A DNA stretch of 63,948 bases, counting the filler, from Reclinomonas americana ATCC 50394 (taxonomy: Eukaryota), in the NCBI GenBank assembly GCA_048213135.1. It is 11 parts of 11 records of this genome, joined end to end, with 100 filler letters (N's around TTAATTAATTAA, not from the genome) between each part and the next. Parts side by side here need not be neighbours in the genome. Positions count along the whole stretch, not along the records: positions 53,844 to 59,739 come from AFZH01020862.1; 10 more parts are not named here. One strand, 5' to 3'. Positions 16,632-61,481 of this stretch are shown piece after piece (the first letter of the stretch is position 1; every line of letters begins with the position of its first letter). The translations under genes were made by a program, and so were the position numbers. The notes below the pieces were generated by a model. It was not told the DNA's origin. It saw only the letters and a program-made list of their open reading frames with translations, and ran no database searches.

Positions 16632-16731
16632 NNNNNNNNNNNNNNNNNNNNNNNNNNNNNNNNNNNNNNNNNNNNTTAATTAATTAANNNNNNNNNNNNN
16701 NNNNNNNNNNNNNNNNNNNNNNNNNNNNNNN

Positions 16732-42225: not shown

Positions 42226-42264
<39 letters not shown>

Positions 42265-43459
42265 AGAGGAGAGAGGAGGAGAGAGAGGAGGAGAGAGAGG
42301 AGGAGAGAGAGAGAGAGAAGAGGAGAGGAGGAGAGAGAGAGACAAAGAGAGAGAAAGAGAGCGAGAAAGAAAGGTAGTGGAAAAGAAAGAAAGAAATCAT
42401 TAGAGAGAGAGAGAGAGTCAGTCAGTCACACACTTGGAGAACCGAACAAGATTCCAGTCCGTACCTTGCGGAAATGCTTCAGGTCGACGCCGCGCACCGA
42501 GCACAGATATTCGTGGTACTTGATATTTTCGGGATTGGTGTCGACCAGCTGGAGTGCCTCGGCTTCGGCCTGCTCCATGCGACCGAGTTCCAACAGAATC
42601 TCAAAGCGCATTTCGGCTGCGAACAGCGGATCGCGGCACACGTCGTTCTCCACGGCTTCGTGGAGGCACTGCAGAGCCTCCTCCAGCTGCGACACACAGA
42701 GAGTGAGTGATGAATCATGAAAAAAAGGAGAGGACGACCACCAACCTTGCCGGCCTCGCGCATGATTTGGGCGCGGTACATTTGCAACTCGGAAGCCTCC
42801 GTGTCATTGTCCGGCAGACCGCCCGCATCCATTCGACGACCGCGACCACCCTTCTCGTCGGGCTGCAGAGTGTTCCACAGTGATTCCATTGCGCGCAGTG
42901 CCAACTCGGCGTTCTTGTTCAGGTGCTGACCGACAATGAATCCAATCCAGTGTGGTCGCTGCGCCGGCTTCATTTGCAACAATGCTCGTCGCGACACCTG
43001 CACGCACCATCGTGAATCAGTGTGGGTGTTCCCTCCCACCAAGTCTCTCCCACAGTCGCACGAACCAAGAATCCCTTAAAGTTGCGGTTCTGCAGCTGGA
43101 TGAACGACAGATCGCGCAACAGTTGCATGTTGTCCTGTGAGGGGAGAAAAGAGTGTTAGGAGGGAAGGGGATGAGGGTGAAGAGAGAGGGGAGGAGAAAG
43201 AAACACAACTGATTGCAGGCGAACGGCTCGCTTGTAGCACTTCTCGGCCTCGGCGTAGTTGCGGTCGGAGCGGTGGAGGAGGCCGTAGACCTTTAGAAGG
43301 GGAAGGGTGGGGGTGAGGGAAGGAGGAGAGAGGAGGTCGGTGAAGGGGGAAAGAGGGGGAAAGAGGGGGAAAGAGGGGGAAAGAGGGGGAAAGAGGGGGA
43401 AAGAGGGGGAAAGAGGGAAGGAGAGAACTATCCGTACAAACAGAAACGACAAAAGCTGC

Positions 43460-43507
<48 letters not shown>

Positions 43508-43778
43508 AGAGTAGAGAGAGTAGAGAGAGAGAGTAGTACGACGAACGACGTACGACGACGACGGTACCGGTACCGGGAGACGGACGGAGACGACGACGAC
43601 GAGTAGTAACGTACGAGACGTACGGTACGTACGACGTNNNNNNNNNNNNNNNNNNNNNNNNNNNNNNNNNNNNNNNNNNNNTTAATTAATTAANNNNNNN
43701 NNNNNNNNNNNNNNNNNNNNNNNNNNNNNNNNNNNNNAGAGTAGAGACGTAGTAGAGAGAGAGAGAGACGAGAGTAGA

Positions 43779-43830
<52 letters not shown>

Positions 43831-44737
43831 GCACGCACGCACACAGAGAGAAAAGAGTACAAAATGCACCGTACGCCCGCAGAACAGTACACAAAGAAGT
43901 GAGGAAGTGGAGAGAGACAGAGAGGGAGGAGAGAATGCACAGCGTGCCCGCAGACACAGCAGCCATGAGAGGAAGGAAGGGAAGGACAACCCGCACCTGG
44001 ACAGAAGAAGAGGAGAGTGCAAGAACACACGCCACGATCGGAAAGACAGGAAGGAAATGACAGAGTGGGGAGAGCATGAACAGCAGAACACCAGTGACGA
44101 TGGGGGGAACGAAAGGCGAGAAGGACCCGACTGGGAGGAGAGATCGGAGACGAGAATGCATGATACAGGAGAAGAGAGGAGCTCCTCAGACAACAACAAC
44201 ACCCACAATGCATTCCGCTCGCCCCTCACGCAACATGCCAGCACACGTGGCTATCCAATGCCTTCTCCAGTCCACGCTTGGCGCACTCATACGCCTCCGC
44301 CTGCACGCAGACAACTCAGTCTCACACACACACACACAGTGAGAGAAATCGCAGTGCCTCTCGCCCACCTTGCGATCGACGCTGTTGAGGATGAGACCGC
44401 GCATTGACAGAGTCTCTGCGCCACACACACACACACAGTGTGGTGTGTGAGAGAGAGGAGAGACATGTCACACACAGTGCGCGTCACAGACCGCCGTGAT
44501 CAGGACACTTGCGGAGAATCTGGTCTGTGATCTTCAGTGCCTTGGTGTGCTGCTTGGACTCGTACAGCTTCTGCACAAGGAGAGGGAGCGGGGGAAAGAG
44601 CGTGTGAGTGGCACATTTCAAGTCATCTCACGCACACGCGCGCGCAAGCGCGCCCCACTCTCTGGATTGCGGTGGATTGCAGACGGAACTGTGAGGTCGC
44701 GGAACATGCCGCGCTCCTTGGCCGGCAGAGAGTCCAT
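38143..44737 (-). CDS. NAA15: N-alpha-acetyltransferase NatA auxiliary subunit (spans the gap at 43638)
   Basis: MDSLPAKERGMFRDL|KLYESKQHTKALK...CPDHG|ETLSMRGL...SHVCWHV|YGLLHRSDRNYAEAEKCYKRA; HTPTIAEVYLAKAKILK|HAGD; LDIADRYLNK; MQWSWYL; EDQWDFHGYCLRKGTLRAY. Confidence 0.95.
38716..39275. repeat. ~192-bp tandem repeat, ~3 copies, inside an NAA15 intron
   Basis: The unit begins GCAGACGACACGAAAA at ~38716, ~38908 and ~39101 and contains GTCACAAAGTTCACAG and GGCTGAGTCAGAA. The first two copies are near-identical. Confidence 0.9.
40960..41270. repeat. ~121-bp tandem repeat, ~2.5-3 copies, inside an NAA15 intron
   Basis: GAGCGATTAAGACAGAAAGCAGAA recurs at ~40976, ~41099 and ~41219. Confidence 0.85.
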
Positions 44738-45116
44738 GGTGATCTCGTGATCAAAGTGCAAAAGTGATTCGCGGGACACGCAAAGGACATTGCCTTTCTC
44801 CTTCGTTGATTCTTCTTTCTTTCTCACACTCAGCGTGCGGTTTGTTGCGTGGCTGCACATGCTTCGTGCAGCGACTTTTGCAGAGTTTGAAAGAGAGACG
44901 GCGGAGTGACGTCGGATCGGAAATTTTGCAGTGTGATTGCGAAGTCAGCGTGAAGGCCGCGTAGAGTCCCTTTGATGACTGTGGCGACGTGTGAGAGTTT
45001 GAGGAGCAGAGGAGTAGAGAGAGAAGACAAGAGAGGCACAAGAGGCAGAGAGAGGAAGAGAGAGTGTGTGTGTGAATGTGTGAGAGGGAGTGTGTGTGAG
45101 GAGAGAGAGGGAGTGA

Positions 45117-45151
<35 letters not shown>

Positions 45152-45179
45152 TGAGAGTGTAAGAGAACAGAGTACAAGA

Positions 45180-45390
45180 GGGAACCACAGATCTTGTTGC
45201 AGAAAGCGAGATGCAGAGTGTGAGTGTGTGAGAGGGAGTGTGCGAGAGAGTGCAAGAAAGAGAGTGACAAGAGGGAGCCACAGATCTTGTTGCAGAAATT
45301 GAGATGCAGAGTGAGAGAGAGAGAGAGAGAGAGAGAAAAGGGAATGACAGAGAGATCCACAGTTCTTGTTGCAGAAGGCGAGATGTAGAA
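45180..45390. repeat. Degenerate ~85-bp tandem repeat (3 copies) upstream of NAA15
   Basis: CACAG(A/T)TCTTGTTGCAGAA..GAGATG recurs at ~45186, ~45279 and ~45358. Confidence 0.75.
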
Positions 45391-45938
45391 GAGAGGATTG
45401 CTCAGCTTCCCAGTGGCGTTCTGCAACTCCTTCGCTGCACAAAGCGATCTCCGCCACAAACGCTCAACTCCGCTTCATGCATGCATGCATGCATGACACG
45501 CGTCAATCCTTCTTCTTCTTCTTCTTCTTCGCGATCACCAACGATAACGATGACGGTGATGATTAAAGCACGAACACATCCGTTGCAGAGCGTACCGATA
45601 CACGCCAACGGTCGTTGCATCCACTACTCCACTCATCGCCACATGCGCACAAATTGGCGCCTTTTTTCAAAGTCTTTCGCCCGTTGTTAAAAAAATCCAG
45701 TACCTCTGCTCTGTTTCACACTGGATATCGTGTCTCATCTCTCACAGAGCACACACACACTGTGACACACACACGCGCGCACACGTGTTTGCCTTTGGTT
45801 TTTGTGTGAATCCACGTGTGGTGTGTGTGTCCGACAACTCTTGTCGCGTCGTCCCATTCTTTCCACGCACAACAATCATTGCTTTTCTGCGCGCGCACGC
45901 ACCACCTGCCCTCTTCCCTCACACACACACAAACAAGA

Positions 45939-46610
45939 ATGCAACTTGCTGAGCCTGCCGACTGCTGCAACAGCCCCACCACATCGTCCTCTGTGCTGCG
46001 CTGGAGGCGGCATCGTCGCCAGTCGCTGTCTCGTCGCGATGATTCGGCTCCTCTCTCGAAATCGCCACCTGCCTCCACCAACGAGAACATGCTTGCTGCA
46101 CCTGCTGCGACAACAACAACAGCCAGCAGCAATGGAAGCAGCAGTGGCGTGCGATCAGATGCCTCTAGCGATCTGCAACAGCAACTACAAAAGGTGATGA
46201 TTGTTGTCTTGATCAGCACGCGCGCGCGCGCCACTCGTGCCTGACTTTTTCGTGTCGAGCAGCAACGACGCAACAGCCAGCTTACACAAGCGACGTTGCT
46301 GAAACACGCGCTGCGATCGGCGGCCTCGACGATCCGCCCACGACCGGACTCGCCACCTTCTGCTGTTGCCGCCTCGCCCACTGGTCTGTCTGTGGCACTA
46401 CGCGCGCGGTTGCGTGCCACTGTGGAGGCGGCCATGGCCGGCACCAATGCCACGCAGCTGCAACGCAAGGCGTACCTCGCGCAGTTGGTGTGCGAGTTTG
46501 AGGAGCTGAATGGGCGCGTCGACTCGTGGTTGCACGATCTGGCCATTGACGACACGCTGTCGCCGTTGCATGAGCAGATGCCGTGCTGTGTGCCCGAGGA
46601 GTGCACATGA
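45939..46610 (+). CDS. Hypothetical protein (2 exons)
   Basis: MQLAEPADCCNSP...QQQLQK|QRRNSQL...LRARLRATVEAAM...VPEECT*. Coding-like composition; an intron of ~70 nt at ~46194-46262. Confidence 0.5.
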
Positions 46611-46850
46611 TTGCTGCATGTTGCATGTATGTTGTACAAAGTTGTTTTGCTTGATTTTTGTTTTGCATTGTTGTTGTTTCGCTTTCTTCTTTTCTGGTTT
46701 TTCTTTTTGTTTTCCTTGCTGTGTGTGGCAGGAAAGACGGTAATTGAGAGAGACGCAGATAAACGCGATGAGGCGGGCGATGAGATATCGATATCTGCTG
46801 AAGGAAATTTCACTTGACTTAGCCGTTTTGTGGAGTTTTTGTAACACGCG

Positions 46851-47973
46851 ATGAGCACAAAGTACAACGAAGTGGAGCTTCCTCTCCAGAAGGACTTCCC
46901 AGAGGTTTGTGTATGTGAGAGAGAGAGGGAGAGAGGGGAGGGAGAAGAAAGAAGAGGACAGACGTTGATGACATGAAGCAACTGACGATCTCTTGTTGCT
47001 CTCTCTTGGTGTGTGTGTGTGTGAGAGAGAGGAGAGAGAGAGAGAGAGAGAGAGCGATAACAAGAGAAGAACTGACTTGCACTTTCGTTCTCAACTGTCT
47101 CCCTCTTCCCTTCCTCTCTCTCTCTCCTGTGCGTGAAAGAGAGTGTGTGTGGCAGTGTGTGTGAGGGAGACACAGGGAAAACAGCGTCGATTGCAAAGCA
47201 GTCGTTGGCATGCTCTTTCGTTCACTCTCTCTTCTCCTCTCTCTCTTCTCCCTCTCCCGTCCTCTCCCCGTCCTCCCTCTCCCTCATGTACATGCAACAG
47301 TGTGTGAGAGAAAGAAGACATCGCTGTTGAGCAAAGCTCCCGACATTTCATTTTCGTTCTCAAGTGACTCCCCCTTCCCTTCCTCTCTCTCTTGTGTGAA
47401 AGAGAGTGTGCGAATGAACGGCAGTGTGTGTGTGTGTGTGAGAGAGAGAGAGACAGGGAGAACAGCGTTTCTAGCAAAGCAGTTGTTGTCATTCACTTTC
47501 GTTTTCTCTCTCTGTCTCTTCCCCTCTCTTTCTTCTCCCTTCCTCGTTCTCCCTCTCCATCTCCCTCTTGTACGTGGAGCAGTGTGAGAGAGAAAGAGGG
47601 CATCCCTGCTGTCGAGCAACGCACCTGACATTTCATTTTCGTCCTTGCCATGCCGCTCTCCCCCTCTCGCTTGTGCATGTGACTGTGGGAGAGCAGGTCA
47701 GCACGAGTAGTCAGCATGCTCTTGCGTTCACTCTCTCCCGTTTCCATACTCTTGTGCGTGTGACAGTGAGAGAGGCGGGGAGAACAATACCAGAAATCGT
47801 TGCGTTCTCTCTCTTCTCCTCTCTCCCCTCCTCTTGTACGTCGAACNNNNNNNNNNNNNNNNNNNNNNNNNNNNNNNNNNNNNNNNNNNNTTAATTAATT
47901 AANNNNNNNNNNNNNNNNNNNNNNNNNNNNNNNNNNNNNNNNNNNNGAGTCGAGTGACGAGAGAGAGTGACGT

Positions 47974-48055
<82 letters not shown>

Positions 48056-48532
48056 CAGGGAGAACAGCGTCGATTGCAAAGCAGTTGTGCTCTTTCGTTC
48101 TCTCTTCTTCCTCCCTTGTCCTTTCCCCCGTCCGCGTGAGAGAGAGGTGTCGCTGTCGAGCAAAGCACCCGTCATTCCACTCCTTCCTCTCTCTCTCTCT
48201 CTCTCTCTCTTTTGTAAATTTGACTGTGTGAGAGAGAAAGACAGTAGAACAGGACCGTCCACCCTCTCCCGTTTCCCTCCACTTGTGCGTTGAAGAGAGA
48301 GTCAGGGAGAACAGCATCGCTAGCGACCAATCGTTGTCATTCACTTTCGTTCTCTTTCTCCCCCTCCCCCCTCCTCACCCTCCCCTCCCTCTCGCCACAG
48401 ATTCTGAAGAACTTTACGCGCGAGGTGCTGCGGAGCCAGCCGCGCGACATTTACGCGTTTGGGGCACAGTACTTTGCGGATTTGGCGAGGCAAGCAGAGC
48501 AGGGTGGCAGCGGTGGTGGCGGCAGGTCGTGA
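46851..48532 (+). CDS. Small stand-alone RIIa dimerisation/docking-domain protein (~61 aa; Sp17/RSP7/RSP11-like D/D domain)
   Basis: Exon 46851-46904 (MSTKYNEVELPLQKDFPE) joins in phase 0 to exon 48401-48532 (ILKNFTREVLRSQPRDIYAFGAQYFADLARQAEQGGSGGGGRS*), giving a classic RIIa motif. Confidence 0.8.
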
Positions 48533-48665
48533 GGGCACGTGAGGAGGAGGAGGAGGGCGACACACACACACATGCAACGAATTTGAGTGGAATGGAGTTG
48601 CGAAGAAAGTGTAGTTCTCCGTACACTACATGTTGCTGTTGTGCGCGCGTGTGCGTGTTGCGCGT

Positions 48666-51339
48666 CAGGTACCGAATTCCTGTGCGGGCGGTGAGGGGAG
48701 GGGGACATGGGGACGGGGGAAGGAGATGGGAGGCGCAGCTCACCGATTCTGTCTCCGAGGCTAATGTGGACATGCGGCCGAATGATACAGAGTCTGGGTC
48801 GATGCGACCGCCTACAACATGTGTAATGAGACAAAGGGAAGGGAGCGAGAGGGAGATACAAAAAGAGGCGATGAGGTACAGAGAAGAAGCAGAGTACAAC
48901 CGAGAAATTTCCGATAGGATAACAGCGTTTGTGGAACAGCTGCTTCTCAACGCCAGCAACAGAAACAAGGAAGGCAAGCCTGCAGCTCTCTCCAACACAC
49001 ACGCATGCATCAACATCCAGCTGCTTCTCAACACAAGCAACAGAAACGGAAAGACAACCGCACTTCTCAACACGCTTCCTCTTCTAGCACCAGAAACTGA
49101 GACAGCAGGCCTTTTTGCAGAACGCTCTTCCTCTCTGCACGCTTCTCAGCACCGACAGAAGGAAAGTTCTTCTGCTGAACACGCTGCCTCCTTCCAAGAC
49201 CAGCAACACAAGAAGGGGAGCTTGCTGCGGAACACCCTCCCTCCAGCACCAAAAACAGAAACGGCAGGCCAGCTGCAATACTAACTATCTCCCTCACGAT
49301 TCTCCAACAACTGACTCGAGCACGGCAAGCACAACACCCTTCCCACCCTTCCCCTATTTCCCCCCTCCCCTACCCCACGCACCCGGCTCCATATCATCAT
49401 CATACACCCTCGGCAACTTATACGACTGATGCATCTCCATCCACGCATTCAACGCCGCCAGCGCCTCATCGCGCGACGCCCTGCTCTCAAACGCCAAGAA
49501 CCATACTCGATCTGTGAATGGGAGTCAGTGCCACCCACTCAGAGACACGCAGAGACACAGACACACACACCCATTGGGTTCAGTGGCTCAATCACCAACA
49601 CGTTCTGGCGACCACCATGCGCGTCTAGTCGCCGTATGCGCCCAATGCTGCTCTGCACGATTTCTCCTTTTGTTTTCCGGCCCTGCACGGAGAACAAGAG
49701 AAGATGATCATGACAAGAAGAAGAAGGGGGGAGGGGGGAAAGAGGAGGAGGGGGGAGGAGAAGGAAACGGAGGGGAAGAACAAGAACAAGAGCAAGAAGC
49801 AGATGAAGAGAACAAGAAGAGAGGAGGAGGAGGAGAAGAAGAAGAAAGAGGAGGAAGCGAAGAAAGAAGACAGTGAGAAGAAGGGCAGGAAGCGGATGAA
49901 GAGCAAACAAGAAAAAGAAGATGATCGAAAAGAACAAGAGGAAGAAGAACGGCAGGAAGCAGATGATGAAGAAGGACAGGATGGAGAAGAAGATCAAGGA
50001 GAATAAGAACAAGGAGGAGAGGAGGAGGAGAGGAAGAAGGGCAGGGAGCAGATAAAGACGAAGAAGAAGGAGGAGAAGAACAAGAACAAGAAAAAAGAGG
50101 AGGAAGCGAAGAAGGAAGACAGGGAGAAGGAGGAGAGGAAGAAGAATAGACGGAGGAGAGAAAGGAGACGACGACAGAGCAGAGCAAGAAGAGAAGAGGA
50201 AGAGGAAGAACAGCTGGTAACAGATGATGAAGAAGGACACGATGGAATAGGATCGAGGAGAAGAAGAACGAGAGGAGGAGGCGAAGAAGGAAGACAAAGA
50301 GGAGGAGAAGAGGGGCAGGAAGCAGATGGAGAGCAAACAAAAAGAGAGGAGAAGGAGAGGAAGAAAGAGGAAGAGGCGAAGAAGGAAGACAGTGAGAAGG
50401 AGGAGAGGAAGGAGACGACGACAAAGAAGAATAAGAAAAGAAGATCAAGAGAGACGAGGAAGAGGAACAACAGGAAGCAGTTGAAGAAGATCAGGGAGAA
50501 GAACAAGGAGAAGGAGGAGGACAAGATGAAGGGCAAGAAGCAGATGAAGACGAAGACGAACAAGGAGAGGAAAGAGAAGGAGGAGAGAAAGAAGCAAATG
50601 ATCAAGAAGAAGCAGGAAGCAGATGATGAAGCAGAAGAACAAGAAGAAGATCAGGGAGAAGAACAAGAAGAAGGAGGAGGCGAGGAAGAAGGGCAAGAAG
50701 CAGATGAAAACGAAGAAGAACAAGGAGAGGATGAACAGGAAACAGATGATGACAAAGGACAGGATGGAGAAGAAGATCAAGGAGAAGAACGAGGAAGAGG
50801 GAACAGCAGGAAGCAGTTGAAGATGATCAGGGAGAAGAACAAGAAGAAGGAGGAGGAGAGCAAGAAGGGCAAGAAGCAGATGAAAACGAAGAAGAACAAG
50901 GAGAGGAAAGAGAAGGAGGAGAGGAAGAAGCAAATGATCAAGAAGAACAGGAAGCAGATGATGAAGCAGAACAAGATGATCAGGGAGAAGAACAAGAAGA
51001 AGAAGAAGGAGGAGGAGAAGAAGACGAAGACGAACAAGGAGAGGAAAGAAAAGGAGGAGAGAAGAAGATATTGATCACAAGATCACAAAGCAAAAGCATC
51101 AGAAGACGAAAAAAAAGCAGAAGAGAGGATCGCCCACGCAACAGGCCCATCCTTATCATGATACGTCACAATGCCACTGTCCAGCACAAAGAACCGACGC
51201 TGCACAACAAAACAAATAAGCCTCAACACAAAGACACACTCACAGAGTCACACACCTTCCACGATCGCACCACAGCGCCCTCCTTGAACGCCCAAAAAAA
51301 CCGCACAGAAGACGACGAGCTGCTTCCAGGCACACTCAT
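48666..51339 (-). CDS. Small PH-domain protein (6 exons, two introns expanded)
   Basis: MSVPG...FKEGAVVRSWK|RRFFVLDSGIVTYHDKDGP|GRKTKGEI...LVIEPLNPM|DRVWFLAFESRASRDEALAALNAW...|GGRIDPDS...|EFGT*. This fits the PH consensus (KxGxxxKSWKRRxFVL plus C-terminal helix). Confidence 0.8.
49690..51135. repeat. ~1.4-kb polypurine (GAA/GAG-rich) low-complexity intron with internal degenerate repeats
   Basis: Almost purely A/G on the + strand, with recurring GAAGCAGATGA and GATCAGGGAGAAGAACAAG. It lies between in-frame PH exons. Confidence 0.85.
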
Positions 51340-51379
51340 TATTAAACAGACAGACACAGACAGACAGGACACAAGAATC

Positions 51380-51945
51380 ATGCTCACCAGTGCACGCCTT
51401 CATCGCCTGCTCTTCTCCACCAGCGCCAGTGGACGCCCTGCATCAGTGCCCATCATCCGGCTAGTCTCCGGTCGCGACCACGACTGTGGCAACCCCGACT
51501 GCTGCGCGCATGAGCATCTAGTCGAGGTGCACGAGGCAGAGGAGGATGCTGAGGGTGCGCGACAGGCACTTGCGCGGGAAATGGAGGCCAGTGGAGTGGT
51601 TACAGAGGCGGATCGCGGGGTGGAGGTGTTCTTTGAGCGGTTGAAGACGATGAGTGATGCAGAGGTGAAGCAGTTCTTATCGGTGAGTAGAACGGTGTGT
51701 CATTGGAGTGCGTGTTGTTTGGTGTGTTCAGCTGTTGTTGGCGTAGAGGGCAAAGGAGCTGGAGGATGCGCAGGCGGAGAAGCAGCGGGTGAATCCGCGG
51801 ACGGGCGAGGTCGATGGGCCAGCGGGTCCAGGTTTGTGCTGGTGACTCACTTGCGCCTTCTATTCCTCTCACTTGCACGTGGTGTGGTGTAGAGCCGACG
51901 CGGTATGGCGACTGGGAACGCAAGGGAAGGGTCACTGACTTCTGA
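51380..51945 (+). CDS. SDHAF4: Succinate dehydrogenase assembly factor 4 (Sdh8/DUF1674) with a mitochondrial presequence-like N-terminus
   Basis: Three exons. C-terminus VNPRTGEVDGPAGP|EPTRYGDWERKGRVTDF* is the diagnostic DUF1674 motif. N-terminus MLTSARLHRLLFSTSASGR is Arg/Ser-rich. Confidence 0.9.
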
Positions 51946-51964
51946 GCGGAGCTTTCGAGACTCC

Positions 51965-52775
51965 GATGCCAAGTAGATAGATGTACAATGGAGTGTTTCA
52001 TTCGACAGCAGGCGCAGAGTACTTACTTGCTCAGAGTGAAACGGTAGTAGATGCAACGCTCCTCCAGGTCTCCACCTTTCGATCAGCAGCAGGCGCGGAG
52101 TATTTCCAACATCAGGAGCTTGCGGCTGTCCCGCGTCTCTCCACCTTTCGATCAGCACCTGGCGCGGAGTACATTCTAACATCTTGTGCGTTGCTGCTCA
52201 GAGTGACGCACAAATAGATGCAACACTCCTCCAGATCTCCTCCCTTCGATCAACAGCTGGTGTAGAGTACTTTCTGAGCAAGTAGATGCACGCTCCTCGA
52301 GTCTCCACATTCCATTCAGCAGCTGGCGTTCTGCCGTCAGGTGCTTGCAGTTCCAACCGATCCAAGTAGATGCAAGGCTCTTATCTCCACTTCATTCGAC
52401 AGCAGGCGCAGAGTATTGCCAACATCAGGAGCTTGAGTCAAGCAAATACAGATGCAACGCTCCCAGACTCTCCGCCGTTCACTTGTCAGCCGGCATCAGG
52501 TGCTTGCAGTTCCGAGCGACAAGTAGATGCAACGCTCCTCTCTCCTCCTTGCATTCGACAGCTGGCGCAGAACGCATCTAACATCGTGCCAGGTGCTTGC
52601 TTGCTGTTCGAGTCACCACATAACATTCAGCAGCTGGCGTTGGTTCTTGTAGTTCCGAGCGATCCAAGTAGATGTGATAGAGCACAGGCAACGCTTCTCA
52701 GGTCTCCTCCACCATTCATTCAACAGCAGGCGCAGAATACTTTCTAACATCAGGTGCTTGCCGGCTGTTTTCGAG
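51965..52775. repeat. Degenerate intergenic minisatellite, ~8-9 units of ~70-100 bp
   Basis: The core AGTAGATGCAACGCTC...CTCCAC...CAGC(A/T)GGCGC(A/G)GA recurs at ~52047, 52216, 52282, 52366, 52446, 52522 and 52667. Confidence 0.8.
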
Positions 52776-52814
52776 TGAAACACGCGGAGAACGACTGTCC
52801 CCGTCATCCAATCC

Positions 52815-55800
52815 TTACTGGTTGGCGCGGGCAAAGCCGACCTGGTTGCCACCAACGTCGAACACGGTCGCGTCTGCACATTATCAACAGAGAGAGGAGA
52901 GTGAGTTGACTTAAAAGAGCACGGATGGGAGAGAAAGAGTGTGTGAATGTCACGCACAGGTGCTGATAAACACGTCGCCCAGAATCCACAGCTCGCCGAG
53001 CTGAGCCGGCAGGTCAATGGCCATGATGCCAATGATGCACTCGGACTGGCCGAGCTCGGACACCTTGAGCACGTACTCGGAGCCCTTCAGCTCGTAGGTC
53101 TTGCCGCTGATGGTGAACGACAGGGTCGGCAGCGTGCTGAGGTTGCTGCAGTCCTTGGCGACGGTGCCAATGGCCGCCAGCACCTTGTTGACCTCATCGC
53201 GAGGGCCAGCAATGAGCGAAGTGCCAGTGTCCACAATGGCGCTGTGCGAGGCACACAACAGTGGTGTGAGTGGAGAGCAAGAATATAGAAGGGGGGTCGG
53301 TGAGACGCAACGGGGTGTTGGCGTTCACAATGGCCTTGCCGTTGACGTTGATGGCGTCGACACCAATCTTCCAGTAGGTGTCCGAGGTCTGCACGCGCGA
53401 CAAAGAAAGAGTTAGGTGAAGGCGAAGGGAAGGCGAGGGGGGTAAGGGAGGCAACAACGAACCACGGGGGTGTAGCTGAAATCGCCAGACACCTTGCTCT
53501 GGTCAATGCCGCCGAGCACCATCACGGAGGTGGTGGCGCCGGGGGTCTGTGGAATGGGGGAAGGGGGGAGGTGAGGGGAAGGAGAAGGGGAAAGGAGAAG
53601 GGGGAAGGAGAAGGGGGAAAGAGGGAAGAGAAGGGGAAGAGAAGGGGAGAGAGGGAGAGAGGGAGAGAGGAGAGAGGGGAGAGAAGGGGAGAGAGGCTGC
53701 TGTACCGTACATCCGCCGAGTGCCCGTTTCAGCGAGCCGTACGNNNNNNNNNNNNNNNNNNNNNNNNNNNNNNNNNNNNNNNNNNNNTTAATTAATTAAN
53801 NNNNNNNNNNNNNNNNNNNNNNNNNNNNNNNNNNNNNNNNNNNTGGGAGAAGAGAGGAGGGGAAGAGTGAGAGAAGAGAGGAGGGGGAAGAGTGAGAGAA
53901 GAGAGGAGGGGGAAGAGTGGGGGAAGAGCAGGCGGGAGAGCAGGGGGAAGAGCAGGGGGAAGAGCAGGGGGAAGAGCAGGGGGAAGAGCAGGGGGAAGAG
54001 AGGAGAGCGGAAGAGAGCGGAAGAGAAGGGGGGAGAGAGGGGAAGTGGAGAGAGCACAAGAATTCTGCTTCCTCACTCGCTTCTCATGAGAAGGGCAACC
54101 CTCATCCCACTCAGCATCTGCGCTCACACTGCTCCCCTTCCTCAATTCCCCCTTTCCCCTTCGTCCCATCCACAAACCTTCGACAGGTAGAAGAAGAACT
54201 TGTTGGCCAGCTGACCATTGCTCTGCTTCACGGCCTGGTCAAAGAACGTCGGCACGCTGTCGACGCTGATGGCCGGGAAGGCCATGCCGAGGATGCCGTC
54301 CATCTTGCCGGCCAAGAACGAGATGCCAGACTCCTTGGTCACCTCGCCGAAGAGCTGCGCGAGAAAATGCAGGAAAATGAGCACGGGGGGAAGGGGAAGA
54401 GGACACGGCGGAAAAGGAGAAGAGAGGACACAACAGGGAAAATTGAAGGAGGAGAGGCCAATGCTCTCAGACATGACAAGGAAAGCAAAAGAGGACACAG
54501 AAGAGTAGGAAGGAGACAGGAAAGAAGGAGAAGACGAAGAGAGGTTAATGCTCTCACACGAGAAGCAGAGAAGGTGAAGACCACGCTTAATGAAGGCAAG
54601 AAGAGAGGCCAGCGCTCTCAGAATATAGCAGAAGAGAAGAAGAGAGGACGACAAGGAAGAGAGGCCAAAGCGCTCAAACAAGGTAGGAGAGAAGAAAAGA
54701 GAAGACAGAAGAGAGAGAGAGAGAGTGAAGTATGAAGCAAAGGAGGAGAGGGAGAGACTTACGCTCTCGGTAACGGCAGGGAAGGAGAAGAGAACAGACA
54801 GGAGAAGGCACAGTTCGTGAGCAGAAGACAGGCCACCACTCTTGGACAAGCGGGGGAGTGAAGATAAGCCCATGTTCTCGGAAGCGCAGAAGAGATGAAG
54901 TTGGAAGGCAAGCACTCTCAAACAAGCAGGAAAGAAAACGAGAGGAAAACGCTCTGCGAAGGCAGGAGAAGAGAGGTGCAACAATGTTAGACAGAAGGAA
55001 GACGTGAGAACACAGCAGGCAACAAAGAGAGAGGATAACGCTTTCGGAACAGACAGGAAGAGAAGAAGAGAGGGCACAGCAGGGAAGAAAGAGAGAGGTC
55101 AACGCTCTTAGAGCAAGGCAGGAGAAGGAGAGGAGAAGCAAAGAGAGGCGCAACAATGTTAGACAAAGGAAGGAAGACGTGAGAACACAGCAGGGAACAA
55201 AGAGAGAGGATAACGCTCTCGGAACAGACAGGAAGAGAAGCACAACGAGAAGGCAGGAGAAGGCAACCCTTCATCCAAACCAATCCCCCTTCAACCAATC
55301 CATCCACGCAACGAAGCGCTGCGACTCATCCGAGCTGGCGCCGACCGACACGTCACCGACCGTGACCTTGTCCTTGGAGAGGAAGCCGTGCACGCCACCC
55401 GACCCGTACTGAATGTCAAAGTCGCGTCCATCAACGCGGTACGTCGACGACTTGCTCGAGTCGAAACGCGAGTGCAAGAGGCACGAGACCGCGCGGCACT
55501 TGCTCGACGGCACCCACAGGTTGGAGGAGCCAGTGTCAAAGACGACCTTGAACGACTGCGGCGGAGTGCCAATCTGCGCAATGCCAAAGTACTGCGCGTC
55601 CTCGTAGTCGCTCAGCGGGACGTTGTGGCCGTCGCCGAGGTCGAACGACGTCGTCGAGTCCATCAGCGACGTCGCACGCAGGCGGCCACTGCGAGAAGAA
55701 GCACCGGGGGTCAGTGCCATGTCGGAAAAACACAAAACCCCCGCACAAACAACAAACGCACACAGATACAACACGAATGGAGGGAATGAGGAGAGCAGAG

Positions 55801-56067
55801 AGAAGAAAAAAAGGAGCCCGGTTGTGCAGCGCGTGTGTGTTGAGAGTTTCGAGCATTTGCAGCACTCAACTTGACCATCTCCATGCGGACACCGCCGGCC
55901 TCCTGCATCTTGCGGAGGATGCGGATGCGCTGGAGCTGCTCCTGCGCAGTCATCAGCTCGGAGCGGTGGCGCATGGGCACGGCCACGCCGCCTTCGGCGG
56001 AGGCGGAGATGGCGGCCATCAGCACGGTGGCCAGGAGGGCCAGGCAGACCACGGAGAGGGTGCGCAT
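52815..56067 (-). CDS. Cathepsin D-like (pepsin family A1) aspartic protease, secreted/lysosomal; spans the gap at 53744
   Basis: Signal peptide [34 protein letters not shown]...[70 protein letters not shown]. Confidence 0.95.
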
Positions 56068-56413
56068 GGTGGGGGGGAGAGGCTGTTGAAGGGGGAGGTG
56101 AGGAAGGGGGCGAGGGAGAGGCGGCGAGTGCTCCGAGGGAAACGCAACTTTTTTGTCTGAATAATGAGGAAATTTCGAAATGCATCGGTTTTGGGAAGCG
56201 AGGAAGAGCGGCGCGCAGGCGCACGTGCGTGGAAGGAGAGGGAGAGGGAGAGGGTGAGAGAGACGTGTTAGTTCTTCAAGCTGCTAAGTGGTTGACAGGA
56301 TCTGCCAGGAATCATGGACGCGACGACACTGTCGTATTTGTCAGGTTATTGCATCCTTTTGTGTGTGCGAGAGAGGTAGGACCACAGAGCGTGTGTGCGC
56401 GAGAGTGTGAGAG

Positions 56414-59103
56414 ATGGCAGCTGCCGCTGGAAGTGCGACGGTGCCAGTGCGGACGTCAAGTCGCACAGGGCTGCCGCTCAAGTGAGTCGTGCCTCACTCA
56501 AGTTGCACTCCACACACGTCATTGCTCACAACGCAGTCATGGTGTGCATCCGCATCCGCAGTGTGCCTGCACTGCGCATCACTTCCGCCATGGATGGCCC
56601 AATGACGCTTGCCCTGCAACACAAGGTGCTGCAGGTGTTGCCAGCGTTCCTGAACGACCCTGCTGGCGCTGGCATTGAGCACTTTGAAGAGTGGTCGAAA
56701 CAACTTAACTGCAACTCCAGCGGACGAGATCGAAGGTAATGTGCCATAGTCACACTCACGTACGATATCGATACACGCGCTTGCACTCTTCCCTCGTGCA
56801 TCCTTCGCTCCGCTGCGCATGCGATGTGAACGTGGCTCAAATGAGCATGATCATAATTTCACCGGCCGCGGTACCCTTTTTCTCATCGCGACGCGTCATT
56901 CCTGATTGCAGAACTGTGCAAGTGGTGGACGGCGCCTACTGCGGCGCCAAGATATCGAGTGCTGCTGCAGCCACCTTGCAGCAATGGCGAGGAAACATGT
57001 GTGACTTGCCCGCGCTTGACATCTCCAATGCCGCACCGATTCTGGAGTTCGGCGCATTCATCGCCAGTGACGACACGGTCCATCGCGTTCTCCCTGACGA
57101 CCGACAGGTGAGCCCATCGACAGCGGCGAGTGCACTGTTGTCTGTGTTGTTGACCTTTGTGTTTACGCGTCCTTGCAGCGTGCTGCGGTCAAAGCCGCGC
57201 GAGAAATCCGCAACTCGATAATCCATGATCGAGGATCGCAGTCGCACGAAGATCTGGAAGATTTGCTTGGGATGCCCGGCGAACAAGGTCGCCTACATGG
57301 TATCATTGTGGACTTGCAACTCGGTGTCGATGTGCAGGAGACGTTGTTGACACAGTTGGATGCGGCTCGTGAGGGTGAGTTGTTCGCTGCGCATCATCGA
57401 TGGGTGTGATTGTGTGCATTCTCATGTGCATCTACAATGTTTCTGTGTGCTCGCAGGTCCACTCGATGGGAATAGACTCCCTCCTCGAGCTCTTGCTGTG
57501 CGCGTTAAAGAGCAGCTGCTAACACAATTGTCGTGCTGCACACGTTGCGACAAGCTACCACGTCTGGTATTGTTAATAATCCAAATAACCGGGCTTCTTG
57601 TATGGATGGTAGTCCTTGCGACACCATTTATACTTGAATGTAAGTATTTGGATTGGAAGACACGCTCTGGCGACTGGAGTTTGGATTGTCACAGCCATGT
57701 CAATGCCACCGACTGCCGCGTTGCTTCGCTCACTCAGTGCTCCGAGTATGGAACGTGTGGCTGGTGTGCATTGCCCGCAGGCGACGGTTCGGGGACTTGC
57801 ATGTTTGCTTCGACTGATGGCTGGCCGGCACTCTACCGGTGTGACGGAGGAGTATGGAGTGGATACGAAAACCTGTCGTGCGACTACCACACGGCCGCTG
57901 CGTTCTCGACTGCTGTATACGCGTCATTCGTACTTTTGTTCTTGCTCTTGTGTACGATGCTCCACAGCGGAACTGCCAGGTGACAGTTCCCGTGGTGCTC
58001 GCTTTGTTCTCCCAGTACACGCCACCGTTCTGAACAGAAGTCTGCATCCCCACAGATATCGAAGGCGAATGCGAGGCTTTGCGCAAGTGTCGTGTCGCAA
58101 GGTGTTTTCATTTGCATGCTGCGCGTGCAACTATCCAGACTGCGAGACCGCTGGCGCTGTTTTTCTCGGCTACTGCATGGCACACTCTACCACGTATTTG
58201 CCTCCCATTATCTTGGCACTTCTTCTCATGTTTTGGTCGTCGGATGGCGTACCTGCTGTGTTATACGGTCGCGAACGGGTGGCATTCATTTGCTGCATGT
58301 TTCTTGTGGCTTCTGCCATGTATACTGTTCGCGAAATGGAGAAGCTGGAACGGACCGCAGCATTGCACGGAGTGCTGAATAGACATGCGTTTGGTGCATT
58401 TGCGATATTGATATGTGCTGTTGGTGACGAGTCTGTGTTGCTCATTTCTCCTCATTTCTACTGTTGTCTTTCGCGCAGCCATCGTGTTCATGAATTTGTG
58501 CTGGTGGTCAGTGATTCTGTTCCCATTGAACTTTGACGCTGGCGAGCTAGTTCCTGCAACGCGGACCACGTGGCTAGCCGTCGCAGTATTGGTGCTTTTC
58601 GCTGCGGAAGGGGCGGGGGCCACGGCTCGATTAGACGTAGACCTCCGCGTGAGCCCTGCTGTGGGCTCTCGATGGTTGACATCTGTTATGGCCATCATCG
58701 TGACAACGACCAACATTGCACTTGTCATCGCCATTGCGGTGCTCGAGGCCAGAGCGCAGCGCACCCTGGACTACAATCTGTACGGCGTTGTGGGCAAGCT
58801 GCTCTCTGCATTGTGTGGAACCGTCGTCTGCAGTATTTTCCTCCGCATGCTTACTGTGCCTGCGCCGGATGCGGTCGACGTTCTCACCAGTGATGAACCG
58901 GTCCCCGACGTTGAGGTGGCCGTCTACGACGCCGGTAAGCAGGGCTGACTTGCAGAATGACAAGCGTGCAACAACACTGCCGGGAGCACTCACACTGTGC
59001 TGTTCATCTTGCAGAACGCCAGCCACTCCTGGAACCAGGAAGTGTACAGCTTCCAGTTGCCACCGAGAACGGAGGAAGTATTGACGCCACTGAGCAAGTG
59101 TAG
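56414..59103 (+). CDS. Predicted HEPN-domain (DZIP3/Swt1-like) protein fused to an ~8-TM membrane domain with a PSI-like Cys-rich loop
   Basis: Eight exons join in frame: MAAAAG...LPLN|VPALRITSAMDGPMTLALQHKVL...|...LPALDISNAAPIL...|RAAVKAAREIRNSIIHD...|...TM1, CHSH..DC..QCSEYGTCGWC..GTC..RCDGGVW..SC, TM2...|TM3-5|TM5-8...DA|ERQPLL...EQV*. Confidence 0.65.
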
Positions 59104-59875
59104 CTCAGTGATGCACTTGATTGACTATTGTAAAACAGACATACTTGTGCAAACTCACACCACCAACAAAGACTTCATACACGCAAGCATAACGATTACC
59201 GTCTTAAGTGAGCAGCAGAAACTGAGACATCACTGAATAAGAACGAGAACAATTGAATGCCTCATGCTGGCGTGTCAGCACGAGAAACCACGGAGTGTAG
59301 CACACACATAAACTGCAGCCAGACTTCACTGGCATACACAGAAAAGGTAAAGCGTTGGTAGGAAACCAACAACATAGCCAAGCAAAGAGAAGGAGCGTGG
59401 TGTTGTCGTCAACAGTGACTGCCTTTTGTTATTGAGATTGTTCAGTTGATGCTGGGGCACTCCAACAGCCAAAACTCATTCATGTGAACATGCACCGCAC
59501 ACTTCACAAGCGCCTCTTGCCCTGGACAGTCTGCACGCAGCACTCCGTCATTCAGCAGCACGAGAATACAAATACAACAAATCATGATCACTACAAACTT
59601 CAAGCACCAAAAAACCCACCTCCACCATCCTCCTTCCCTCCCTCCCTCCCCCCACTCTCACCCACCCACCCGCACTCCCTCGCGCCCCCGCACACACACA
59701 CACACACACACGACGACGACGACGCGACGACGTACGTACNNNNNNNNNNNNNNNNNNNNNNNNNNNNNNNNNNNNNNNNNNNNTTAATTAATTAANNNNN
59801 NNNNNNNNNNNNNNNNNNNNNNNNNNNNNNNNNNNNNNNCCCCACCCACCACCACCACCACCACCACCACCGCGG

Positions 59876-61231
59876 CTAGCTCCCGCGCATCATCTCAACG
59901 ACGACCTGCAACACCGACACGGGAAATACGCGTGCCGGCCTACAGTTATCCACGCCATCCAGCACGATGCACCCGCGGTCGTTCAAGTGCAGCAGCGCAA
60001 ACACGAACGCGCCTTCTCCCTCGCCCCCGCCCCCGCCCCCGCCGCCCTCCTTCCACACGCTTATCGACTCCTCGTAGGTAAGCGCCTTGAACGTTGTCCA
60101 CACGGCCTCGTCGGAGACAATGTTCTCCTCGACCTGCAGCGCACCCAAAATCCACTTGTTCTTCTCGGCCATTTTGCGGAGAAGCGCGGCGAGCAAATCG
60201 CCATACTTGTTCTTCTCGCCACCATCGCTGCTCCTGTCGTTAGTCACGCCCGACGCGGACGCCATCACGCGCTCCAGCGCCCTCATCGACGAACCGACCA
60301 TGAACACGCACAGGCGCGCAATCCTCCTCCTCCGGCACACATCGTCACACCCCTTGGCCTCCAGCATCGCAAGTGCCGTGTCAATGTCGACGGGCGTGCT
60401 GCTGTGGACGCCCAGTGTGCGGTACTTGGTGCCGTTGAAGTTGGGCGCCCCGCGCAGCCGCGGGTACTCTTGCCGCACCGCCTCGTTGCCGTTGCAGGTG
60501 ACGAGGAGCGGGAGGATGGCGGCCGAGGTGCAGAGGTTGGTGGAGATGCGGCCGCTGGCCTGGTCGCCGAGGAATGCAAGTTCGTGGAGGGTGAAAAGGG
60601 CCTTGTCGTACGCTCGTCCGGCCGCCCCCCCAAGCCGGTACAACTGGTCGAAATCGTCTACGAGAAGCAAGAGGCGCCGGTCGTGCTCCGCCAGCGCGCC
60701 GATCAGCGCAACGCCAGGCTGATGATTCGAATGGAGCGGCACGCGGATGCCGTGCACGGCGGCGAGCTGCTCGGCCACCACCTCCAGCAGGCTCTTCTCC
60801 GCAAACGGACTCTGCATCACGTCGGCGAAGCTGACGTAGACCGGGATAATGCCGGGAAAGATGACAGGGCACAGAGCCGCCCAAGAGCGCACAATGCACG
60901 TCATCCCCATGCCCTGGGAGCCGACAAACAGCGTGTTGCCGATGCCGCGCTTCCCGGCGTACCGGTTGCTCGAGAGGTTGCCGGAGACTGTCATCAGACA
61001 CTGGTACATCTCGTGGTGCGTGAGCGTCTTGTAGCAGGGCGTGCGGCCGGAAAAGTGCACTGCCGCCTCCGCGGATTGCCCGACGCGGTCAATGGCGCAC
61101 ATCACATCGTCGGGAGTCGGCCGAGGGCCGAGATCGCCGACCGCGCGCCGGACGAGGTCTGTCGAGGCTCTCGAGGGCGACCAGACGGCGGTGAGGTGAC
61201 GCAGGTGGCAGAGCAGGGGAGGTGCGAGCAT
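59876..61231 (-). CDS. Intronless P-loop NTPase (STAND/AAA-like, possibly CR-NTPase-related) with a degenerate Walker A
   Basis: Single ~450-aa ORF. NTLFVGSQGMGMT (Walker A, K>M); IIPVYVSF; RLLLLVDDFDQLY (Walker B); C-terminal ALLHLNDRGCIV is winged-helix-like. First ATG at 61231. Confidence 0.7.
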   Translation of the reverse strand: MLAPPLLCHLRHLTAVWSPSRASTDLVRRAVGDLGPRPTPDDVMCAIDRVGQSAEAAVHFSGRTPCYKTLTHHEMYQCLMTVSGNLSSNRYAGKRGIGNTLFVGSQGMGMTCIVRSWAALCPVIFPGIIPVYVSFADVMQSPFAEKSLLEVVAEQLAAVHGIRVPLHSNHQPGVALIGALAEHDRRLLLLVDDFDQLYRLGGAAGRAYDKALFTLHELAFLGDQASGRISTNLCTSAAILPLLVTCNGNEAVRQEYPRLRGAPNFNGTKYRTLGVHSSTPVDIDTALAMLEAKGCDDVCRRRRIARLCVFMVGSSMRALERVMASASGVTNDRSSDGGEKNKYGDLLAALLRKMAEKNKWILGALQVEENIVSDEAVWTTFKALTYEESISVWKEGGGGGGGGEGEGAFVFALLHLNDRGCIVLDGVDNCRPARVFPVSVLQVVVEMMRGS

Positions 61232-61481
61232 GTGCTGATGAGGGGGAGTGAGAGAGAAGGAGAGTGAGGGTGGTGGGGGGGTGTGAAAGCAGAGGGATGC
61301 AATACGCACTCTCTCTCTCTCTCTAAACGAGAAGCGTACTAGTGTAAAGTGCGCGACGGGTGGTTTACACTTCGTGTTGTNNNNNNNNNNNNNNNNNNNN
61401 NNNNNNNNNNNNNNNNNNNNNNNNTTAATTAATTAANNNNNNNNNNNNNNNNNNNNNNNNNNNNNNNNNNNNNNNNNNNNT

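Follow-up and report, generated by a model that had tools for sequence, protein, structure and literature searches.

The HEPN fold is a bundle of four helices, arranged as two alpha-hairpins, that comprises about 100–120 residues and has an Arg and a His in its active site. The HEPN motif is given in section 6 of the HEPN survey as Rx4-6H in which the residue next to the Arg is polar (N, D or H) (PMC3710099). The logic weighed in the present work is that of Ire1 and RNase L, in which a cytosolic RNase, membrane-tethered in the case of Ire1, carries a site of the RNxxxH type and is activated by oligomerisation (PMC3710099, in the parts of the survey drawn on here). Ire1 itself has a single transmembrane (TM) segment and a lumenal sensor; its KEN domain follows a kinase, and its RNase is C-terminal. 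The C6orf70 family is likewise eukaryotic and combines a predicted HEPN domain with an ER-membrane anchor and no kinase, and in bacteria a cytoplasmic HEPN domain is carried on TM segments by several groups (DUF4145-type proteins with a WP helix, and others), for which section 15 of the survey proposes a role in linking stimuli at the surface to the cleavage of RNA (PMC3710099). Within the same parts of the survey, the membrane-linked HEPN proteins have one or two TM helices only (PMC3710099), and our literature search found no multi-pass, receptor-like HEPN protein in a eukaryote.

Here we describe a locus of Reclinomonas americana for which a sequence-only reading had proposed such a protein. 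The locus was analysed within a window of 63,948 nucleotides, filler included, by which we mean the whole stretch of DNA under study. The eight-exon gene predicted at this locus is probably real, and probably encodes a lineage-restricted polytopic membrane protein; a HEPN fold for its N-terminal domain we put at about one in three.

Results

Pieces bounded by GT and AG at this locus can be joined in frame into a predicted model of eight exons (56414–59103, plus strand), with a joined length of 2070 nt, 689 encoded residues and a single terminal stop (Table 1). That eight exons can be joined in frame into one predicted protein, as had been claimed, is borne out at the level of the sequence. All seven introns are of the form GT..CAG and are 55–176 nt long. 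Exon 1 must stop at 56481 because an in-frame TGA lies directly behind its GTGAGT donor, and the join of exons 1–4 to the TM exons hangs on a single intron of 82 nt.

Table 1. Features of the predicted gene and its product, in window coordinates; residue numbers (aa) are those of the joined frame
Feature	Position	Strand	Description
Exon 1	56414-56481	+	Putative start ATG; aa 1-22, split codon at end; Ala/Ser/Thr/Arg-rich, non-hydrophobic
Exon 2	56562-56735	+	aa 23-80; sole E-x3-[KR] upstream of RNSIIH (EEWSK, aa 65-69)
Exon 3	56912-57107	+	aa 81-146; contains LDISNAAPIL stretch
Exon 4	57179-57374	+	aa 147-211; three predicted helices; carries HEPN-like motif
RNSIIH	57209-57226	+	aa 157-162; Rx4H motif, Asn after Arg
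Exon 5	57457-57979	+	aa 212-385; end of N-terminal domain, TM1, Cys-rich loop, TM2
TM1	57558-57635	+	aa 246-271; Kyte-Doolittle 19-residue peak 2.7; limits by eye
Acidic Cys loop	57636-57893	+	aa 272-357, 86 aa; 9 Cys; CGWC at 57756-57767; N-x-S/T sequons at aa 294 and 350; predicted lumenal/outside
TM2	57894-57965	+	aa 358-381; followed by a basic, predicted cytosolic loop with 7 K/R in 38 aa and 5 Cys
Exon 6	58056-58423	+	aa 386-508; basic loop and TM3-TM5
Exon 7	58479-58934	+	aa 509-660; TM5-TM8 and start of acidic tail
Exon 8	59015-59103	+	Tail with ERQPLL (59015-59031; Glu codon split over intron 7) and stop codon

The N-terminal ~245 residues of the joined frame lack a hydrophobic segment, the first one beginning at about aa 242 by hydropathy. 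The statement that the N-terminal ~250 residues carry no signal peptide agrees with this profile, in which no signal-like segment appears. In the whole protein, eight hydrophobic segments of TM length were found (Kyte-Doolittle peaks above 1.5), a count that may be 6–8 because two of them, TM4 and TM6, span only 17 aa. Lys and Arg together make up 13 of 73 residues in the predicted inside loops versus 10 of 129 in the predicted outside loops. Judged by its several TM segments and this consistent charge bias, the predicted product is a polytopic membrane protein. The earlier description of TM1, a loop of 8–9 Cys with a CGWC and about seven more TM helices matches what we counted, namely nine Cys in the loop and eight hydrophobic segments in all, and the proposed topology, with an even TM count that places the N-terminal domain and the tail in the cytosol and the Cys loop in the lumen, is supported by the bias in Lys and Arg, by the sequons and by the nine Cys in the predicted outside loop.

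The CGWC motif is typical of PSI domains. The further suggestion that the Cys loop is PSI-like found no support: the PSI family (PF01437) gave no match at E<=10 to the whole loop, which lies intact in a single exon and was scanned in the 173-aa exon-5 piece as well as in pieces of 85 and 40 aa. The sole Pfam match in the loop was a sub-threshold one to the Cys-rich toxin family Toxin_17 (14.7–17.5 bits against a cutoff of 25), and an AF2 model of the loop was unusable (pLDDT 46.5). At the other end of the protein, the ERQPLL that had been read as a C-terminal dileucine signal is present at aa 661–666, 27 residues past TM8, and matches [DE]xxxL[LI]; by a rough estimate, about 1 in 10 tails of 55 aa would contain this pattern, which is therefore not rare. 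ERQPLL arises solely when intron 7 is removed, and it would lie on the cytosolic side given an even TM count.

RNSIIH was present at the position that the sequence-only reading had given for it, and it has the form of the HEPN motif, Rx4-6H with a polar residue after the Arg. To place this match in context, we counted related patterns in the six-frame ORFs of at least 60 aa in the window (72,522 residues). RxxxxH occurs 357 times and RNxxxH five times in these ORFs, so the bare RNxxxH is common, and the stricter pattern h-R-N-x-h-h-H has one occurrence, which is the RNSIIH site. Motifs by themselves are weak evidence. HEPN domains also have a conserved acidic residue ahead of the motif, typically in the form E-x3-[KR]. 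A single E-x3-[KR] (EEWSK) lies 92 residues upstream of RNSIIH, and such matches are common by chance. In an AF2 single-sequence model of the 65-aa exon-4 piece, with a mean pLDDT of 63.9, helices span residues 2–20, 23–30 and 35–64, and RNSIIH falls within a predicted helix. The remaining four RNxxxH sites of the window are in junk-like frames.

The first alternative to an orphan gene is that of the sequence-only reading, a membrane-anchored HEPN RNase. The cytosolic N-terminal domain (approximately aa 75–220) would fold as a HEPN bundle of four helices, in which R157, N158 and H162 would make up an RNase site that needs no metal. The Cys-rich ectoloop or the 7-TM bundle would control dimerisation, and a lumenal or external signal would in this way lead to RNA cleavage at the membrane in an Ire1-like manner without a kinase. 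In its favour, RNSIIH combines the Rx4-6H spacing with the typical polar Asn and a helical setting, one E-x3-K is found upstream, and HEPN families were the only named neighbours of the exon-4 piece in the Atlas language-model comparison, namely clusters of Csm6 HEPN (PF09670, PF09659) and HEPN_Apea at 0.80–0.84. These scores lie below the Atlas lead line of 0.9, and the neighbours share 98–115 features with the piece, whereas true family members usually share at least 170. Among 5027 PADLOC models, RTasHEPN was the sole match to the exon-4 piece (E=0.038, 12.1 bits); it aligned residues 3–20 with profile positions 76–93 of 148, was centred on RNSIIH, and by its placement would extend the whole 148-position domain over about aa 75–220, within the predicted cytosolic part. 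There is also precedent for membrane-tethered HEPN proteins in Ire1, in the single-TM C6orf70 and in three bacterial groups (PMC3710099, in the parts of the survey drawn on here).

The uniqueness of the stricter motif in the window, the Atlas neighbours and the RTasHEPN match together make the motif region more HEPN-like than a bare RxxxxH. These leads are not independent, however, because the sequence was chosen for the motif and all of them come from one stretch of 18 residues. Exon 3 contains a 'DIS...IL' stretch upstream of the motif, which may resemble the DZIP3-like HEPN family. In a scan of the exon-3 and exon-4 pieces, the Pfam model of that family (PF18738) gave no match at E<=10, with the profile divided between the two pieces by the intron that it would straddle. 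More broadly, none of the seven exon pieces matched any of the many HEPN families in Pfam at E<=10, in a scan of half-domains with the domain split over 4–5 exons, and a PDB sequence search gave no match to any HEPN protein. The exon-3 piece had no match in Pfam, PADLOC or NCBIfam and no PDB sequence match, and in the Atlas it had a recognition score of 1263 and no named neighbour. By these searches, support for HEPN is limited to the motif region in the exon-4 piece, and the candidate N-terminal domain belongs to no recognisable family. Taken together with the lack of homologues described below, these results leave the HEPN RNase as a possible but doubtful explanation, and RNase activity of the N-terminal domain as a motif-level candidate rather than an established property.

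Searches for relatives covered several of the exons separately. For exon 7, a complete scan with phmmer, covering 1.84 billion representative proteins, yielded no true relative; the lone match (E 6.6e-05, in eight stretches) was to a tandem-repeat protein and was set aside as an artefact. Against 5.8 billion clusters, exon 5 had no homologue among longer proteins, and exon 4 had none among longer proteins at E<=1 or among proteins of similar length at E<=10. No family was matched at E<=10 in Pfam (seven exon pieces) or NCBIfam (six exon pieces), and the exon-2 piece was without a match in Pfam, PADLOC and NCBIfam. Exon 5 had no match in viral contigs, exon 4 had none in plasmids by tblastn, no paralogue was found within the window, and an Rfam scan of the window returned 0 families. 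Two short matches were attributed to chance: one of 24 residues at the end of a metagenome contig, where the long adjoining ORF resembles, by eye, a bacterial polytopic membrane protein, and one of 48 residues, 40% of them identical, between the acidic tail and a viral sequence.

Next, we assessed whether the spliced frame is more than chance. In the interval 56300–59300 we determined the longest spliced ORF, allowing donors of the form GT[AG]A, acceptors CAG, introns of 50–200 nt and at most seven introns. On the plus strand this ORF measured 2132 nt, whereas the reverse complement gave 596 nt and 60 dinucleotide shuffles gave 332 to 1262 nt, none of them reaching 2070 nt. The joined frame is far longer than expected by chance. 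The best path (2132 nt) has exons 1–4 and 7 in common with the model, and exons 1–5 stay joined in it. An alternative open frame of 307 codons (57613–58536) overlaps part of exon 5. Longest-ORF paths that replace the Cys loop by the other open frame were dropped, since the translation of that frame is rich in Arg, Ser, Thr and His and is not protein-like.

A second alternative, that the model merges two transcription units or isoforms, we consider quite unlikely. The product of exons 1–4 would be soluble, about 220 aa long, and would stop 11 codons into 'intron 4'; the other would be a separate 8-TM protein that starts at the in-frame ATG at 57360 and is read through 'intron 4'. Consistent with such an arrangement, the exon-5 frame extends upstream without a stop to 57351 and contains that ATG, the exon-4 frame ends at 57410–57412 when intron 4 is retained, and it is the one 82-nt intron that links the two halves. 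However, with both units on one strand and overlapping, no room would be left for a terminator or a promoter, intron 4 (GTGAGT..CAG) has the same form as the other six, and the best path of the chance test does not separate exons 1–4 from exon 5.

In base composition and splice donors the model differs from its surroundings. Its GC3 is 0.58 versus 0.67–0.93 in nine neighbouring coding stretches, one of which is an orphan ORF with 0.85, and is near the GC of the model's own introns (0.53). Donors of the form GT[AG]A account for all seven in the model, whereas three neighbour genes with Pfam support have 3 such donors among 13 (one-sided Fisher ~0.0015, hand calculation). An unsupervised survey of introns guided by GC3 proved too noisy for donor counts. 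Codon log-likelihood, trained on one neighbour ORF, barely preferred the model frame and was hardly discriminating. Weak codon bias is usual in weakly expressed genes, and GC1 exceeds GC2 in the model, as coding sequence shows. That the locus holds no functional gene as modelled, with the 689-aa protein not being made because the gene is in decay or very young or because some of the exons are spurious, would account for this composition, for the donors, for the barely favourable log-likelihood, for the second open frame and for the lack of homologues, but is distinctly improbable given that no shuffle reached a spliced frame this long, that the translation is protein-like (regular hydrophobic segments, a charge bias fitting one topology, and Cys and sequons in one loop), that GC1 exceeds GC2, and that a weak codon bias is what weakly expressed genes usually show. 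A codon bias and a splice-donor type unlike those of the neighbours present a small puzzle on gene classes in this genome.

Discussion

The explanation that we favour, though tentatively, is a real gene confined to its lineage (an orphan) that encodes a polytopic membrane glycoprotein of 689 aa, of receptor-like or sorting type, whose N-terminal domain is of no recognisable family. We prefer it because the frame goes beyond chance, because charge, Cys and sequons are consistent with one topology, because no relative of any tested piece was found, and because the bare motif is common. In such a protein, the N terminus and the tail would lie in the cytosol, TM1 would serve as a signal anchor, and the Cys-rich loop, lumenal or extracellular, would carry disulfide bonds and glycans. 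TM2–TM8 would then run from outside to inside, oriented like a seven-helix receptor. The protein may act in the secretory or endocytic pathway, as a receptor-like or sorting-type component, with the ectoloop binding something and the cytosolic N-terminal domain, at least partly helical, providing the output or adaptor part. RNSIIH would have arisen by chance or else belong to a helical domain that is too diverged to assign.

The full proposal, a polytopic receptor with an active cytosolic HEPN RNase as its N-terminal domain, gated by ligand or cargo at the plasma or endolysosomal membrane and lacking a kinase module, is in our judgement unlikely. Were the N-terminal domain a HEPN RNase, this would apparently be the first multi-pass, receptor-like HEPN protein in a eukaryote, the theme of RNA cleavage at membranes known from Ire1 and C6orf70 would gain a new type of sensor, and the protein would offer a simple system in which to study the gating of a HEPN dimer by a signal at the membrane. 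Should the domain not be HEPN, what is left is another orphan membrane protein, of local interest only.

Compared with Ire1, the present protein has no kinase, its candidate domain is N-terminal, it has eight TM segments, and its exon pieces have no KEN or HEPN match in Pfam. The C6orf70 family is conserved widely and its members have one TM region, in contrast to the eight hydrophobic segments, the Cys-rich ectoloop and the absence of detectable relatives here. For the bacterial TM-linked HEPN groups, with their one or two TM helices, no sequence match to the present protein was found in Pfam, PADLOC or NCBIfam. The DZIP3/hRUL138-like HEPN family (PF18738) is eukaryotic and has a mostly conserved Rx4-6H (PMC3710099, Table 1), but it is mainly of the animal lineage, and the fusion partners that the survey gives for it are TPR, RING, NACHT or Death domains and not TM segments (PMC3710099). 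As a small extracellular Cys-rich module, the PSI domain is similar to the Cys loop in kind, although PF01437 found no match here. No 7TM family in Pfam or NCBIfam matched any of the TM exons. By its inferred topology the protein is similar to seven-helix receptors with a Cys-rich ectodomain, in that TM2–TM8 would run from outside to inside, preceded by a Cys-rich segment that could be glycosylated and followed by a cytosolic tail; unlike these receptors, it would carry an extra TM segment and a 245-aa cytosolic N-terminal domain ahead of the ectodomain.

Predicted gene structure

When the model of the candidate gene was rebuilt from raw sequence, the eight exons proposed in the sequence-only reading joined in frame, as had been stated there, into a predicted coding sequence of 2070 nt (689 aa) whose one stop codon is at its end. 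The seven predicted introns are 55–176 nt long, all end in CAG, and begin with the donors GTGAGT, GTAATG, GTGAGC, GTGAGT, GTGACA, GTGACG and GTAAGC. Positions 56300-59300 were searched for the longest spliced ORF, allowing up to seven introns of 50–200 nt with GT[AG]A donors and CAG acceptors. The + strand gave 2132 nt versus 596 nt for the reverse complement; in 60 dinucleotide shuffles the longest spliced ORF was 332–1262 nt, with at least 2070 nt reached in none. The best spliced path has exons 1–4 and 7 in common with the eight-exon model and swaps the Cys loop for a second open frame. This swap was rejected and the eight-exon model retained, because the second frame's translation is not protein-like. 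The joined frame holds as a fact of the sequence and goes beyond chance; the gene itself is a predicted model.

The exon 6 frame is open for 148 codons 5′ of the exon, through the Cys-loop part of exon 5, and over ~370 nt two overlapping frames are both open. An open stretch that long is unexpected; its upstream part, with an Arg/Ser/Thr/His-rich translation, is probably non-coding.

Coordinates of the candidate gene and of surrounding features
Feature	Positions	Strand	Remark
Candidate exon 1	56414-56481	+	rebuilt from raw sequence
Candidate exon 2	56562-56735	+	rebuilt from raw sequence
Candidate exon 3	56912-57107	+	rebuilt from raw sequence
Candidate exon 4	57179-57374	+	rebuilt from raw sequence
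Candidate exon 5	57457-57979	+	rebuilt from raw sequence
Candidate exon 6	58056-58423	+	rebuilt from raw sequence
Candidate exon 7	58479-58934	+	rebuilt from raw sequence
Candidate exon 8	59015-59103	+	rebuilt from raw sequence
Open frame of exon 6	57613-58536	+
Neighbour-gene introns	55312, 54177, 53462, 53311, 52957; 31846, 31538, 31326, 31130; 16410	-	by eye
Aspartyl protease gene	52950-56070	-
Single-exon ORF	59876-61432	-
N-run pairs	2312-2411, 16632-16731, 30118-30217, 34912-35011, 43638-43737		44 N + 12 bases + 44 N
N-run pairs	47847-47946, 53744-53843, 59740-59839, 61381-61480, 62763-62862		same build

Predicted protein and topology

The HEPN-like motif RNSIIH lies at aa 157-162 (57209-57226), exactly where it had been placed, and the first hydrophobic segment of the candidate protein begins near aa 242. 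In the loop after TM1 (aa 272-357) are nine Cys, the CGWC motif and a pair of N-x-S/T sequons. Seven more hydrophobic segments follow it, and the dileucine-type motif ERQPLL (aa 661-666) lies in an acidic tail with 12 D/E against 1 K/R. Across the whole window's six-frame ORFs of 60 aa or longer (72,522 residues), RxxxxH occurs 357 times, RNxxxH five times and h-R-N-x-h-h-H once, at the RNSIIH site, while [DE]xxxL[LI] matches the candidate protein twice. Such short motifs are much weaker evidence than the joined frame.

Charges were counted assuming eight TM segments and an inside N terminus, a TM count that is insecure since TM4 and TM6 are only 17 aa long. Inside loops carry 13 K/R in 73 residues versus 10 in 129 outside, the densest cluster (7 in 38 residues) lies after TM2, and the predicted outside loop holds the nine loop Cys and every sequon past aa 74. 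The K/R bias and the placement of sequons and loop Cys fit the topology originally proposed, under which TM2-TM8 would be oriented like a seven-helix receptor. Because the Cys loop lies entirely within exon 5 it could be scanned intact; PF01437 was unmatched at E ≤ 10, and the loop is therefore not classed as the PSI domain that had been suggested. It is an acidic, Cys-rich predicted ectoloop, probably glycosylated and not assigned to a family.

Search for relatives

Homology, family and fold searches were run on single-exon pieces rather than on the joined protein. A full phmmer scan of the 151-aa exon-7 piece against 1.84 billion representative proteins found no true relative, the lone match being a tandem-repeat artefact. 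A word-indexed search of 5.8 billion clusters gave no match to longer proteins for exon 5 or (E ≤ 1) exon 4, nor to similar-length proteins for exon 4 (E ≤ 10). A lone metagenome match (24 residues at a contig end, the neighbouring long ORF looking bacterial) and a 48-residue viral-contig match to the exon-7 piece were read as chance; the exon-5 piece matched no viral contig. Nothing relevant came from Pfam for any of seven exon pieces (E ≤ 10) or from NCBIfam for any of six, PHROGs returned no match, and the window contains no paralogue. Our leading reading, held tentatively, is that the candidate is an orphan polytopic membrane protein whose N-domain (~245 N-terminal residues) would belong to no known family.

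The HEPN question

That the candidate is instead a membrane-anchored HEPN protein is possible but doubtful. Three leads point this way, all confined to the 65-aa exon-4 piece. In a language-model Atlas, the nearest clusters include Csm6 HEPN (PF09670, PF09659) and HEPN_Apea; HEPN clusters make up four of the six matches listed and are the only named ones among them, with scores (0.80-0.84; 98-115 of 256 shared features) under the tool's lines for a credible family match. PADLOC gave one match in 5027 models, RTasHEPN (E = 0.038, 12.1 bits), aligning residues 3-20 of the piece with profile positions 76-93 of 148; extended, this placement could fit a whole HEPN domain at about aa 75-220, in the cytosolic part. 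Single-sequence AlphaFold modelled the piece as three helices, the first of which contains the motif (mean pLDDT 63.9). Four points count against HEPN. Since the sequence was chosen for RNSIIH itself, the three leads largely repeat that motif. Neither a profile nor a PDB sequence matched the exon-3 piece, the expected first half of the domain; the Atlas gave it no neighbour with a name and a recognition score of 1263, within the range for shuffled sequences. Pfam HEPN models matched neither half (exon-3 and exon-4 pieces, E ≤ 10), and fold searches started from the fragment gave nothing informative.

A HEPN survey gives as criteria the motif Rx4-6H whose R is followed by a polar residue, an acidic residue or E-x3-[KR] further upstream, and a four-helix bundle of 100–120 aa (PMC3710099). 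RNSIIH has the spacing and the polar residue, and the candidate sequence contains one possible match to the upstream feature. The bold HEPN-receptor reading stands on a single motif in a protein without relatives, and the odds that the N-domain adopts such a fold are, in our estimate, roughly one in three.

Codon and splice features

Three neighbour genes with Pfam-supported exons (aspartyl protease, glutamate-cysteine ligase, FKBP-TPR protein) served for comparison, with 13 introns placed from reading frame and profile order and junctions set by eye. Their donors comprise nine of GTT type (GTTGCG, GTTTGT, GTTCGT, GTTTGC), three of GTGAG type and one GTGCGT, whereas the candidate has GT[AG]A at 7/7 and GTT at 0/7 (one-sided Fisher ~0.0015, hand calculation). 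This dominance of GTT over GTRAGT in the neighbours (9/13 introns) is unusual for this eukaryote. GC3 is 0.58 in the candidate (own introns, GC 0.53) versus 0.67-0.93 across nine neighbouring coding stretches, one orphan ORF (0.85) included. By eye, CAG acceptors and branch-like CTSAC motifs are similar in both.

The codon and splice features of the model, whose splicing is predicted, are atypical: either the candidate is a member of a gene class that is young, foreign or expressed at low level, or the model is partly wrong. A wrong joining of two products is improbable; a soluble product of exons 1–4 would stop 11 codons into intron 4 and a separate TM protein would begin at ATG 57360, but same-strand overlapping units would be needed. 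That the gene is not functional as modelled is likewise improbable.

Surroundings in the window

The gene for the cathepsin-D-like aspartyl protease, with PF00026 matches in four of its exon pieces, is divergent to the candidate and ~350 nt upstream; two of its introns, CT-repeat-rich, measure ~975 and ~640 nt, versus 55–176 nt in the candidate. The long single-exon ORF (455 aa scanned, GC3 0.85) is convergent with the candidate and matched no Pfam family at E ≤ 0.01; the Walker-A-like and Walker-B-like stretches seen in it by eye make it a possible orphan P-loop NTPase. Positions 40001-56000 show strong GC and AT skew and long low-complexity ORFs, for instance at 50007-51892, where frames are rich in Glu and Lys, and in antisense frames rich in Ser and Leu. 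The ten N-run pairs, one ~640 nt 3′ of the candidate stop, could represent gaps in the assembly or masked sequence; their positions coincide with the filler between joined records.

Comparison with known membrane HEPN proteins

Among the papers listed by full-text searches, in part restricted to 2014 onwards, we found none on a eukaryotic HEPN protein fused to a multi-pass or 7TM region. HEPN proteins associated with membranes are known: the survey covers Ire1, with a kinase and a KEN domain, the C6orf70 family of single-TM HEPN proteins, and three bacterial HEPN groups, whose members have one or two TM helices (PMC3710099). If real, the candidate's architecture would be a variation on this membrane-HEPN theme rather than a new principle.
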